A stretch of 14,776 bases of DNA from Coleofasciculus chthonoplastes F2-STO-03 (GTDB lineage Bacteria > Cyanobacteriota > Cyanobacteriia > Cyanobacteriales > Coleofasciculaceae). Positions 4,111 through 14,776 of this stretch are shown piece by piece. The stretch is taken from assembly GCA_040222015.1 (NCBI GenBank), contig JAVJWO010000148.1, forward strand, positions 1-14,776. The letters are read 5' to 3'. Position 1 is the first letter of the stretch. Every line of letters starts with the position of its first letter. The notes beneath the pieces are model-generated. The model searched no databases and was not told the DNA's origin. It saw nothing but the letters and a program-made list of their open reading frames with translations. Both the position numbers and the translations under genes were made by a program.

Positions 4111-4120
4111 TATTATGACG

Positions 4121-4146
4121 TCCCTGTTCCCTGCTCCCTGTTCCCT
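4121..4146 (+). repeat. STRR heptamer (TCCCTGY) x ~3.7
   Basis: tccctgt tccctgc tccctgt tccct. Confidence 0.85.
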
Positions 4147-4165
4147 AACAAAGGACATAAGACAT

Positions 4166-4579
4166 AGATCATACAATACTGACACTCACCTAGAAATCTG
4201 GTTGCAGCAAGTCTATAAACCAGTGAACCGATTGATTATTCCCATTCTCAAATCCCTAAACACTCAAATCAATCAACTCGCGGCTGATCCCTTTGATGAC
4301 GAACTCATGGAAGACTTTCAAGCCTATCTAGAAAACTGTCGTCATGATCTCAATCAGGCTCAGATTACCTTTCGTTCCCAACCTAATCCCGCCCCTGTTG
4401 CTGGTGTTGCAGCTTCCTTGTATTACTGTCTCAATCAGTTGGGAGATGGTATTGATGAGCTAGAACGGTTTACCTTCAATTACGACGAACATTACCTGCA
4501 TACCGGTCAAGAACTCTTCAGAATCGCCACCAGCTTACGCCACGACGCTGAAGATGCCATTAAGCATCTAAATTATTAA
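4166..4579 (+). pseudogene. C-terminal part of a cyanobacterial J-domain (DnaJ type III-like) protein, N-terminal J domain missing
   Basis: WLQQVYKPVNR..LAADPFDDELMEDFQAYLE..FRSQPNP..LYYCLNQLGDGIDELE..YDEHYLHTGQELFRIA recalled as the C-terminal region of cyanobacterial J-domain proteins; no HPD motif; the 4115 start only translates STRR/intergenic sequence. Left boundary inferred. Confidence 0.65.
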
Positions 4580-4602: not shown

Positions 4603-4641
4603 CAATGACCAATGACCAATGACCAATGACCAATGACCAAT
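4603..4641 (+). repeat. STRR heptamer array (CAATGAC) x 5.5
   Basis: caatgac repeated five times plus caat. Confidence 0.95.
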
Positions 4642-5271: not shown

Positions 5272-5681
5272 GAAACGGAATGGAAGCATATCTCACCGTA
5301 TCGACCAACTTTAGCGCCGCTCATCGGCTGGCTCATCCCCAACTCAGTTATGACCAAAACTGTGAAATCTACGGCAAATGCGCTCGCCCGAACGGTCACG
5401 GACATAATTATCATATAATTGCCATCTATATTCGGCAATTGCTCCAGTCACCGATCCAAAAATTAGGAGCGAAACTGCATAAAGTTAAACTCATTGAAAG
5501 TCCCAATAACTCCTGTGAAGTCTATTGTACAGGTGAAACATCATCGGTAGAACCGGACGCGATCGCATCTCCTGTTCTCACATTTGTTTAGGGAGAAGCA
5601 TCATATCTATTCTATGATGATGTTGGTCTATTAGTCAGCGAGCAAACCCCTGCTTCTGCCTTCCATAGTCGTTAAGAGTAT

Positions 5682-6586: not shown

Positions 6587-6816
6587 ACTTATGAATAAGG
6601 GCGGGTTTTGTTTATAAGCTATTGGTGACAAGCTAAAATTAGTGGCTAAACCCGCCCCTACAGTTGACTGATAACTTATGAATAAGGGCGGGTTTTGTTT
6701 ATAAGCTATTGGTGACAGCTAAAATTAGTGGCTAAACCCGCCCCTACAGTTGACTGATAACTTTGTTTATAAGCTATTGGTGATCAGCCAACTTTATGGC
6801 TAAACCCACCCCTACA
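6587..6816. repeat. Tandem array of GTAG-type REP-like units (87 bp, 86 bp, partial third)
   Basis: 6587-6673 and 6674-6759 differ by one indel; each holds AGGGCGGGTTT...AAACCCGCCCCTAC; third copy diverged and truncated. Confidence 0.92.
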
Positions 6817-6817
6817 A

Positions 6818-7231
6818 TTAACTTAAATTAACTCGAATAATTTTAGGTAAACGAACAATTTCTGACGCCCCCTCCTCACTGAGTTGATGTGCCGTTAATG
6901 ACTTCACTAAATCAGAAATGCCTTCTGCTCCGGTTTTTTGCAGGATTTGCAAAAGCTGATAACTATTGCTAATTAACTCTGTAACCTGAATTTCCTCATA
7001 AATAGGTTGGTAGTCACCTAAGCGTCTAATTCCCTCCCCAAGCAAGATGACAGCGCCACGCCAGTTAAGATTATTGAGATGGTAGCAGGCTACCGAAATT
7101 TGTAATATACCTTGATAAAACTGTTTGTTTGGTTCGGCTGCCTCCATCCACAATGCCTCTAAGGTGTCATGACAGGCATAAAATTCCTGTTGATTAAATT
7201 GCTCGACACCTTGCCAAAATTGCTTAGTCAT
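6818..7231 (-). CDS. DUF309 domain protein
   Basis: GVEQFNQQEFYACHDTLEALW..FYQGILQISVACYHL..N..GA..LLGEG signature. Confidence 0.9.
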   Translation of the reverse strand: MTKQFWQGVEQFNQQEFYACHDTLEALWMEAAEPNKQFYQGILQISVACYHLNNLNWRGAVILLGEGIRRLGDYQPIYEEIQVTELISNSYQLLQILQKTGAEGISDLVKSLTAHQLSEEGASEIVRLPKIIRVNLS

Positions 7232-7666: not shown

Positions 7667-7798
7667 AAGTTAAATTCGCTAGATACCCTATTCTTTAGTG
7701 TGATCGTTCACTTTTCTTTGCATTTTAACGCAAGCCTTCTACCGGATACGGAAATTGACATCCTCCCCACCTTACTTCGTTGAAGGTGGGGATTCCCA

Positions 7799-9046
7799 TC
7801 ATTGCTGATGAGATTTCCTGGCTCTACGAGCAACCTTACTTTTTGGGGTTTCCCCCTCCAAGCAGCGGGTCATCTCATCCCCAGGCGTAACTTTCCGAGT
7901 GCCCCTCGGTAGTTGAGCTAGTCCCTGTAATGCTTTCATCAAAATATTAATGGCAGCATTCACATCTCGGTCGTCCAAATAACCGCAATGCGGACATTTA
8001 TGAGTACGGGAGGACAAAGCTTTCTTAACTTCCTCTCCACAGTTGGAACAGTCCTGGGACGTGTAATGAGGTGCAACAGCAATTACTGGCACATCAAACA
8101 CCTTCCCGAAATATTCCAACCACTGCCTAAATAATGTCCAACTAGCGTCAGATATTGACTTGGCTAGATGATGGTTTTTTACCATGTTCCGCACTTTTAG
8201 GTCTAGCCTTCGGCAAGCCGCTGCCGCGTCTACAATGGCTACCAAGTCTGCCGACTGGACAAGCGCCCTTGCAGTCTTAACCACAAAGTCTTTACGCCGC
8301 CTTGACACCTTGAGATGCGTTCTGCCTAGCTGCTTGATGGCTTTGAGACGATTCTTGGAACCCTTACCTCTACGAGACACACGCTTCTGTGCGCGTTTTA
8401 ATGCCTTTTCAGACTTTCTCAAGAACCTAGGGTTCTCTACTTTATTGCCATCGGAGTCAGTGTAGAAATGGTTTAGACCAACATCTATGCCTACCATGCG
8501 GTTGGTGGGTTCATGATGTTCTCTACGTTCTTGGTTAATGGAAAACTGGACGTAGTATCCATCAGCCCGACGCACAACACGAACTCGCTTAATTTGCTCT
8601 TTTTGGTAAAAGTGCAAGTCACGAGTACCCCACATCTTAAAGGTTCCAGCCTTGAAGCCATCCCTAAACGTAATGGTTAATCGGTCATCCGATAGTACCC
8701 ATCCATCAACCTTGTACTCGACAGAGCCGTGAGTTTGATGTTTTTTAAATTTGGGAAAACCTTTCTTACCTGGAACCTTTTTCTTGCAGTTATCAAAGAA
8801 TCTAGCAATGGCGCTCCAAGCTCTCTCGGCGCTAGCCTGACAAGCTTGAGCCGATAACTTCTTGCACCATTCAAACTGTTCTCTGAGAACCTTGCAATAT
8901 TTATTGAGGTCGTATCTACCAACCCCTTTGTTATCCATCCAGTATCGGAGGCAACTATTACGCACAAAGCGAGCAGTGCGAATCATCTCATCTAGGATGG
9001 CGTACTGCTCGTCTGTTCCTCGTAATTTTGCCTCAAATACTAACAT
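7799..9046 (-). CDS. tnpB: TnpB RNA-guided endonuclease, probably nuclease-dead
   Basis: N-terminal HTH, GFPKFKK, RuvC-I VGIDVGL, zinc finger CSNC..CPHC, RuvC-III DRDVNAAINI; RuvC-II reads AI-VDAAAACRRL-DL instead of AIEDL. Confidence 0.93.
   Translation of the reverse strand: MLVFEAKLRGTDEQYAILDEMIRTARFVRNSCLRYWMDNKGVGRYDLNKYCKVLREQFEWCKKLSAQACQASAERAWSAIARFFDNCKKKVPGKKGFPKFKKHQTHGSVEYKVDGWVLSDDRLTITFRDGFKAGTFKMWGTRDLHFYQKEQIKRVRVVRRADGYYVQFSINQERREHHEPTNRMVGIDVGLNHFYTDSDGNKVENPRFLRKSEKALKRAQKRVSRRGKGSKNRLKAIKQLGRTHLKVSRRRKDFVVKTARALVQSADLVAIVDAAAACRRLDLKVRNMVKNHHLAKSISDASWTLFRQWLEYFGKVFDVPVIAVAPHYTSQDCSNCGEEVKKALSSRTHKCPHCGYLDDRDVNAAINILMKALQGLAQLPRGTRKVTPGDEMTRCLEGETPKSKVARRARKSHQQ
8201..8232 (-). 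repeat. 27-bp small dispersed repeat-like insertion in tnpB
   Basis: Minus strand TAGAC GCGGCAGCGGCTTGCCGAAGGC TAGAC; 5-bp direct repeats 27 bp apart; frame preserved. Confidence 0.8.
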
Positions 9047-9233
9047 GGCGTCTTCAATACTATGTCGCTTATTTTAAAATAGGACACTAAGAATAGCAAA
9101 AAACAGGTATATTGAATACCCGCTTTTTGCTTGGGGGAGTGAAGGCATCCCCGCCCTGCTCCACCTCGTTTCGCTGAGGACGGGGTTCTATTGCTCCCCC
9201 AAACCCCCACACCTTGATAGGGGTATTTCAGAT

Positions 9234-9336
9234 GTAGCCGGGGCGGGTTTAGTCGCATTTGAGTGAAGTAAAAAACTTTAGTAGTGAAACCCGCCCCTAC
9301 AGTGAAACCCGCCCCTACAGTGAAACCCACCCCTAC
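9234..9336. repeat. GTAG-type REP-like element with triplicated 18-bp right arm
   Basis: GGGGCGGGTTT...(AGTGAAACCCRCCCCTAC) x3 at 9283-9336. Confidence 0.9.
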
Positions 9337-9353
9337 AGGAAACTCAAAACTTG

Positions 9354-13323: not shown

Positions 13324-13369
13324 TTCGTCATTTGTCATTTGTCATTTGTCATTCGTCATTTGTCATTTG
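13324..13369 (-). repeat. STRR heptamer array (CRAATGA on the minus strand) x ~6
   Basis: ttcgtca tttgtca tttgtca tttgtca ttcgtca tttgtca tttg. Confidence 0.93.
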
Positions 13370-13420
13370 TAAAGATTTGAGGCTTGTTAACATTTCTTAG
13401 TCCAGCGGACAAATGATAAA

Positions 13421-14359: not shown

Positions 14360-14503
14360 GATAAAATCCTCTTGGAGAAACGTTACCCAGTTCGGTATCA
14401 GCCAGCCTAGATTATCAACGCTGTATTGCGTCTGAATTTTCCCTAGCTTTCGGCAACAGTCTACTATGGTAAGCGATTTTACCCATCAAGTGAACAAGTT
14501 TCT

Positions 14504-14564
14504 GTAGGGGCGGGTTTCACAACTATCGTTTCTTTCCCCACCCATAAGTAAGTAAAGCCGCCCC
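14504..14564. repeat. GTAG-type REP-like element
   Basis: GTAGGGGCGGGTTT...AAAGCCGCCCC; another left arm AGGGCGGGTTTAG at 14614-14626. Confidence 0.8.
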
Positions 14565-14776
14565 AAGGGTAAAATTGTCACATGGTATGTCTTTACTCCC
14601 TGTTTTCACCAGAAGGGCGGGTTTAGTCAAGTTATGGGTAAAGAACTGTAACCAAATCTCTATAGACATCTACGCAAACCTAATCAAAATGCATAGCTAT
14701 AACCATCCTTACGGTGAATCGGTGTGCAGTAATCCAATCGGGTTGACCTCCTTTTCTTGTCGATAACGAACTCGCC

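Follow-up and report, generated by a model that had tools for sequence, protein, structure and literature searches.

The window analysed here, a 14,776-nt stretch of the Coleofasciculus chthonoplastes F2-STO-03 genome, carries on its minus strand a tnpB-only element of the IS200/IS605 family, in which a short repeat occupies the codon of a catalytic residue (Table 1). The neighbours between positions 35 and 14359 are ordinary: a Photo_RC fragment, Pterin_4a, an SLH-OprB porin, Rrf2, CAAD, DUF309, FeThRed_B, DUF58, a RuvC resolvase, a CofD-family protein, TsaE, and a ParA-type ATPase; positions 4115–4579 gave no Pfam match. A short PTPS-like ORF (5280–5591) matches only profile positions 2–31 of 121 and may be an internally deleted copy. 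Two kinds of repeat are also present. Heptamer tandem repeats (AATGAC-N), which we take to be typical of cyanobacterial intergenic DNA, lie at 725–784, 4607–4637, and 13324–13372, and copies of a AAACCCGCCCCTACAG repeat (GTAG-type on the other strand) occur at 6608–6823, 9240–9341, and 14499–14628, in arrays with spacings of 86, 68, and 18 nt, one of which abuts the left end of the element.

Table 1. Positions, in the window, of the transposon, its tnpB gene, and the inserted repeat.
Feature	Position	Strand	Remarks
tnpB-only IS200/IS605-family element	7755–9216	minus	from alignment with relatives
CTAT transposon-adjacent motif	9217–9220	minus	found before the left end here and in 6 of 8 close relatives
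Left end with subterminal hairpin (9149–9187)	9149–9216	minus	from alignment with relatives
tnpB ORF	7799–9046	minus	415 aa; frame open; VDAAAACRRL in place of Glu272
RuvC-I Asp188 codon	8483–8485	minus	intact; residue invariant in alignment
DNA directly upstream of the insertion point	8233–8262	minus	candidate annealing tract (putative role)
28-nt double-hairpin mini-repeat (SDR-like)	8205–8232	minus	takes the place of the A in the RuvC-II Glu codon
Target-derived AGAC	8201–8204	minus	last base of the Glu codon plus Asp codon; gives an apparent TAGAC repeat
Zinc-finger Cys333/336/351/354	7985–8050	minus	intact; invariant in alignment; Pfam PF07282
RuvC-III Asp361 codon	7964–7966	minus	intact in alignment
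Right end (hairpin 7765–7791, closing GGATGTCAA at 7755) and putative omega-RNA scaffold	7755–7910	minus	upper limit approximate
Putative guide (flanking DNA)	7735–7754	minus	

The element terminates in TCAA, and its ends align with those of uninterrupted relatives, whose flanks differ. The putative omega-RNA scaffold overlaps the end of the tnpB ORF in a region conserved among relatives. Both end hairpins hold short AACGAAG-type loop segments, which may be older mini-repeat insertions; their copy number varies between relatives, L029 and L031 having two, and in L034 they are replaced. No tnpB is present at this locus in any of the seven congeners with a recovered flank; the flank of an eighth congener was not found. 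The spacer between the ferredoxin-thioredoxin reductase and DUF58 genes diverges among the congeners (L069–L075) from about position 7742, and in this comparison approximately 13 of the guide's 20 bases belong to this strain only. An exact empty site of the element was sought in the same congener spacers and none was recovered.

A profile search assigned the protein to NCBIfam guided_TnpB (NF040570) at 293 bits against a cut-off of 100, with additional matches to Pfam PF01385 and PF07282, and its nearest named homologues are found in Coleofasciculus and related filamentous cyanobacteria. Translation of the ORF bore out the RuvC-II region described in an earlier sequence-only reading of this DNA, QSADLVAI-VDAAAACRRL-DLKVRNM. 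That reading had proposed an alignment with relatives as a check for the displaced Glu, and among 120 aligned homologues this residue was indeed present in 117 of the 119 that cover the site; of the two exceptions, one has Ala and the other (P0117) has the same insert as the window copy. Alignment with homologues and relatives likewise confirmed its statement that both Asp residues, the zinc finger, the reading frame, and the element ends are kept. The DED triad is nevertheless incomplete, with Val at the position of the Glu, and a substitute Glu sought in residues 260–271 was not present. Because the available text of a preprint (bioRxiv 10.1101/2023.11.30.569447) states that a change of any DED residue abolishes TnpB cleavage, the nuclease of the window TnpB is most likely dead. 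A structure model of the insert-bearing protein had a mean pLDDT of 69.4 and a pTM of 0.47 with a low-confidence RuvC region; the uninterrupted control P0003, modelled with the same 47 sequences, reached 72.8 and 0.48, its RuvC region being low as well.

The insert had been described as an in-frame 27-bp repeat that removes the catalytic Glu and lies between TAGAC direct repeats. The loss of Glu and the preserved frame hold, whereas the unit itself is 28 nt long and replaces one A, giving a net change of +27. This definition follows from the bases to the right of the insert, which vary with the target in each carrier (AGAC in the window, AGAT in C106, GGAC in L037, where Glu is GAG, and ACA in L014). 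These bases are target-derived, so TAGAC was rejected as a target duplication. To the left, the tract directly upstream encodes D-L-V-A-I and, at its end, the G of the Glu codon. Compared with the form found in the other 11 carriers of our tree (below), the window insert differs by one base. Positions 7710–8369, insert included, are covered by a contig of an independent public run, with three differing letters and one gap, none listed inside the insert; the insert is thus no assembly artefact.

Folding with DNA parameters predicted the same two small hairpins for most repeat variants, while folds under RNA parameters varied, and the fold energy of the insert was no better than that of shuffled sequences (z −0.9). 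Across 13 repeat sequences the 5′ stem is invariant and each pair of the 3′ stem is broken in one to three; double changes occur in two of the six hairpin pairs, all in the 3′ stem, together with some breaks. A search for insert removal at the RNA level disclosed no 27-nt skip joint in contigs, which drop rare forms, from three RNA-library runs and one DNA run. Rfam returned only a chance-level match (E 0.43) and nothing relevant, a promoter scan gave one site against 2.3 expected, and viral contigs searched for phage carriage of the repeat contained no match.

Within the 7.72-Mb genome, the 22-nt core of the repeat occurs in three copies at ≤3 mismatches, all at the RuvC-II Glu codon of tnpB. 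As tnpB-associated DNA makes up only 1.1% of the genome, this placement is not due to chance. The three occupied genes are 52–63% identical to each other's reference, and each has uninterrupted siblings. A genome-wide count had been suggested earlier; it shows that the exact variant is no genome-wide repeat and is confined to tnpB in this genome. The same preference extends beyond it. In a species-representative collection seven of eight exact matches lie at the Glu codon, as do four of five in metagenomes, where the fifth is the Kastovskya locus again; L008 is nearly duplicated by two of the four. Sixty-one relatives yielded 15 repeat matches in nine genomes; all 11 matches within the genus are at the tnpB Glu codon, and the four outside it are all in tandem-repeat DNA, as judged from sequence. 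The same codon is thus occupied repeatedly in paralogues of only 50–95% identity. With 11 filled against 41 unfilled matches of the tnpB target motif in the genus, about a fifth of its TnpB target sites have probably been disabled by one type of event.

In the family (G067 excluded), 144 of the 147 target-motif matches listed code for Glu, and there are 90 further matches. One Val-coding match among those listed, C44, belongs to a tnpB that ends just after RuvC-II (G000:C44:2095–2976, minus strand) and reads GTA GAC (Val-Asp) at the Glu site with no insert. It had been predicted that losing the repeat would leave V-D, and this truncated gene has exactly that sequence. The GTA GAC is likely an excision footprint of the repeat, although a point mutation could also yield it.

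To place the carriers relative to one another, we extracted 52 tnpB copies, dropped 10 below 340 aa, and built a tree of the remaining 42 with the insert masked; 12 are carriers, two of them included for carrying the insert. The carriers are spread over six lineages and require 10 changes or more. The uninterrupted L030 is the sister of the window copy, and a clade joining the latter to its closest carrier, L029, was rejected (p-AU 0.003), as was one other within-subfamily group of carriers (p-AU 0.010); a clade of L047 and C208 is compatible with the data (p-AU 0.28). The tree, which tnpB mosaicism could distort, also contains two pairs of sister carriers. Carrier pairs within subfamilies differ at dS 0.40–1.7, yet 11 of the 12 inserts are identical. 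Each copy retains the flanking bases of its subfamily to within 2 nt of the insert on the left and 0–1 nt on the right, and carriers have different host DNA outside the element. Because at least 10 changes are needed and near-identical inserts reside in hosts separated by dS of at least 0.4, these comparisons indicate that the repeat is spreading by repeated, base-precise insertion. None of the 12 tree carriers has an internal stop. The dN/dS values of carriers (0.04–0.14) and uninterrupted copies (0.05–0.13) overlap in the 20 of 42 leaf comparisons available, and those of carriers cannot separate the time before insertion from the time after it.

Cross-subfamily identity around the site is lopsided. 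It reaches its highest peaks, 0.81 and 0.77 (mean 0.58), in the 20-nt and 30-nt windows that end there, and homology is one-sided, since windows centred on the site rank only 61/1150, 74/1140, and 145/1130.

The repeat belongs to a wider family with the pattern TAGACGCG-N(1-3)-AGCGGCTT-hairpin-T and units of 27–29 nt. With G067 excluded, 24 of 40 genomes from the family contain it. Twenty-nine sampled contexts of it are mostly short tandem or palindromic repeats, none with a tnpB match. Two sister variants in the genome have empty sites (1 and 10, respectively) that hold a single A, and they occur with their own contexts. At G000:C187:8283 and C197:9748, a sister repeat with the same 3′ hairpin and another 5′ hairpin sits in the loop of a palindromic repeat; at L096:1501 and L104:1501, one mini-repeat apparently lies inside another. 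The tnpB Glu codon of family f7 holds three further 5′ modules, each attached to the same 3′ hairpin: an in-frame insert of 25 nt in G286, one of 23 nt that shifts the frame in G238, and another of 25 nt in G268, where the gene is truncated. With these, the different 5′ hairpin modules at this codon number four. The segment VRRSRCRRL is found at the same site in proteins from Gloeotrichia and UBA11148. A junction pattern searched in 301 genomes gave 18 matches: seven in the genus, three real ones in f7, and eight that we judged to be chance because they have no hairpin (control about 16). L106 was rejected as a chance match.

Other positions of tnpB also receive short repeats. A protein search found the Glu codon to be the site most often occupied, in 10 of 40 near-full copies against three at the next site. 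Besides the Glu codon, nine of the 42 tnpB copies carry 10 other in-frame short-repeat inserts, all at non-catalytic positions. Residue ~89 is occupied three times, in different subfamilies (L036, L042, L058), by a GTAGAGAC-type palindrome; the pattern of this palindrome family matches G000 at 387 places, 11 of them near tnpB. The remaining copies are L031, L043, L055, L057, G000:C165, and G000:C208. One insert near residue 370 is present in four homologues and needs four changes on the tree. A 5′-truncated tnpB (G000:C153:87176–87490, minus strand) has a different in-frame repeat insert of eight residues a few codons after the Glu site.

How the repeat reaches this codon can be explained in several ways. 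The explanation we favour, and which we consider about evenly balanced between right and wrong, is that the repeat is copied again and again from an occupied into an empty tnpB via short homology, an event predicted to leave a dead nuclease without a new job. A single-stranded donor, either the ssDNA transposition intermediate of an IS605-type element or a transcript or its cDNA, would anneal through the conserved 20–30 nt upstream of the Glu codon; the looped-out 28 nt would become fixed, and flanking mismatches would be resolved to the recipient. Mismatch correction to the recipient while a loop escapes is behaviour known from oligonucleotide recombineering. Such an extra step is needed because ordinary gene conversion would transfer flanking bases, and none were seen to be transferred. 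The target would then be set by the context that already holds the repeat rather than by the repeat's own sequence, and the catalytic codon may be struck as a by-product of its conserved DNA. Insertions would persist because TnpB is dispensable for the host, and recombination across the TAG ends may remove the repeat again, leaving Val. The genome encodes proteins that could be relevant to copying or insertion, with 17 matches to Y1 HUH proteins and four to reverse transcriptases. That context seems to carry the address is suggested by G022 and G026, whose near-identical repeats reside only in tandem-repeat DNA and leave the tnpB target motif unused despite four and 10 matches to it, all 10 of those in G026 coding for Glu; the loop bases of these repeats differ from the genus form, which weakens the argument. 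In its boldest form, which we hold to be doubtful, the repeat would be a 28-nt protein-free homing element using an undescribed templated pathway, with about 20–30 nt of imperfect one-sided homology and no flank transfer, and would act as a spreading anti-TnpB device in cyanobacteria. If this were true, the templated homing pathway could be redirected to write small, precise insertions.

Alternatively, an HUH protein (TnpA/RAYT-like) or other enzyme could read the hairpins and insert the repeat at the target motif with no homologous donor, which we regard as the leading competitor and yet unlikely. The single-base precision without transfer of flanks would suit such an enzyme, several REP-type candidates exist among the 17 Y1 matches, and the four 5′ modules at one codon could mean that the site itself attracts an enzyme instead. 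Filled sites often read GTAG followed by a hairpin, as REPs do in the accessible portion of PMC3733652, but the G is target-derived here, with A in its place in several copies. Roughly R-A-R is all that the family targets have in common, GARGAY alone occurs 14,982 times in the genome, and in G022 and G026 the tnpB motif goes unused by near-identical repeats. A different proposal separates landing from retention: repeats land broadly, and copies are retained where a genotoxic nuclease is silenced, as a filter of selection or host defence. It would explain why the Glu codon is the most frequently occupied site, and it resembles the defence role proposed for SMR-A against IS605 elements in Haloquadratum in the available text of PMC3119063. 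Broad landing, however, predicts copies at neutral sites, and none of the 11 in the genus is at one; any frameshift would disarm TnpB more easily; and the other in-frame inserts occupy non-catalytic positions, one of them three times. We therefore consider this proposal improbable. The sequence-only reading had similarly suggested a host repeat disarming a selfish nuclease, of which the likely effect stands, while the data show no selection for disarming.

Two further explanations appear very improbable to us. Under inheritance, one or a few old insertions would have been inherited and then multiplied as dead elements transposed, amounting to plain pseudogenisation. The two sister pairs of carriers fit this, and tnpB-only elements can move in trans; the changes counted on the tree, the two rejected groups, and inserts that are identical across saturated synonymous distances oppose it, and this explanation is already largely refuted. 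Under TldR-like domestication, the in-frame insert would have produced a dead but RNA-guided repressor retained by the host, a route that had been raised for this gene and that fares poorly here. The insert leaves the frame, the zinc finger, both ends, and the scaffold region intact, open frames are kept in 12 of 12 tree carriers (which is also expected of recent events), and an RNA-library contig carries the insert, although transcription is not thereby proven. Against a repressor with a host function, the transposon ends are retained, the locus has no tnpB in the seven congeners, and the carriers form no clades and sit at different host loci, so that their guides differ. A search of the 7.7-Mb genome (219 contigs) with the putative guide found no match to CTAT plus 10 nt, one at 9 nt, and three at 8 nt. 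Only one of the three DED residues is changed, a frameshifting variant and a truncated carrier exist at the same codon, and the low dN/dS (~0.06) is no different in uninterrupted pairs and may date from before the insertion.

The mobility of the repeat is directly testable, because there is a single defined target, filled and empty alleles coexist in the same genomes, and the loss of TnpB cleavage offers a selectable read-out. About one in four or five related tnpB genes of the genus has been struck at the same codon, and full-length, probably dead TnpBs of this kind risk being taken for TldR repressors or usable editors. Our literature search, which covered few subscription papers, showed no account of a mini-repeat that homes to the catalytic codon of TnpB, and no paper combining tnpB, cyanobacteria, in-frame insertion, and a repeat.

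Among known systems, the small dispersed repeats (SDRs) of filamentous cyanobacteria come close. SDR1 to SDR8 were reportedly described by Elhai et al. in 2008. Such an SDR is a dispersed non-coding repeat of ~21–27 nt with a conserved structure and compensatory changes; how SDRs move is, to our knowledge, unexplained. Like them, the present repeat and its variants are non-coding hairpin units of 23–29 nt inserted with base precision into a defined sequence, with both filled and empty sites found, and the family is common in tandem and palindromic repeats. Unlike SDRs, the tnpB variant is confined within the genus to one catalytic codon and is found outside Nostocaceae; the likeness to SDR1–8 drawn here is one of description. 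An SDR-type repeat inserting in frame had been invoked from the sequence, in agreement with the SDR-like mini-repeat that replaces the Glu. A preference for a target is known for SDR5, which inserts into HIP1 according to the accessible text of PMC5861425 and PMC4390886.

GTAG REPs and their RAYTs, as far as the available portions of PMC3733652 and PMC6006769 describe them, share with our repeat the short hairpins, the occasional in-frame position in genes, and a GTAG at the 5′ junction. Here the G is target-derived (A in L095 and L097–L101), two small hairpins replace one long stem, the copy number is low, and no adjacent RAYT was shown. The window protein resembles TldRs in being TnpB-derived, with a damaged RuvC triad and possibly a guide RNA. 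According to the accessible part of the preprint (bioRxiv 10.1101/2023.11.30.569447), TldRs have at least two DED changes (a screen criterion), sit with new partner genes, and carry guides that point to conserved promoters, and transposon ends have been lost in the flagellin-linked clade; the window TnpB has one DED change and kept ends, with no such partners or promoter guide seen. The host element is like other tnpB-only IS200/IS605-family elements (NF040570) in its hairpin ends, CTAT, TCAA right end, and lack of an internal tnpA, and unlike intact ones in its 10-residue segment in place of the catalytic Glu. Finally, SMR-A of Haloquadratum is likewise transposase-free, makes no target duplication, and prefers IS605-type elements, its mobility being unexplained and a defence role proposed, in the text available from PMC3119063. 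There, SMR-A is described as ~110 bp long with inverted terminal repeats and located mostly in near-terminal palindromes outside the ORF, whereas the tnpB repeat is 28 nt long, has no terminal inverted repeat, and sits on the catalytic codon.
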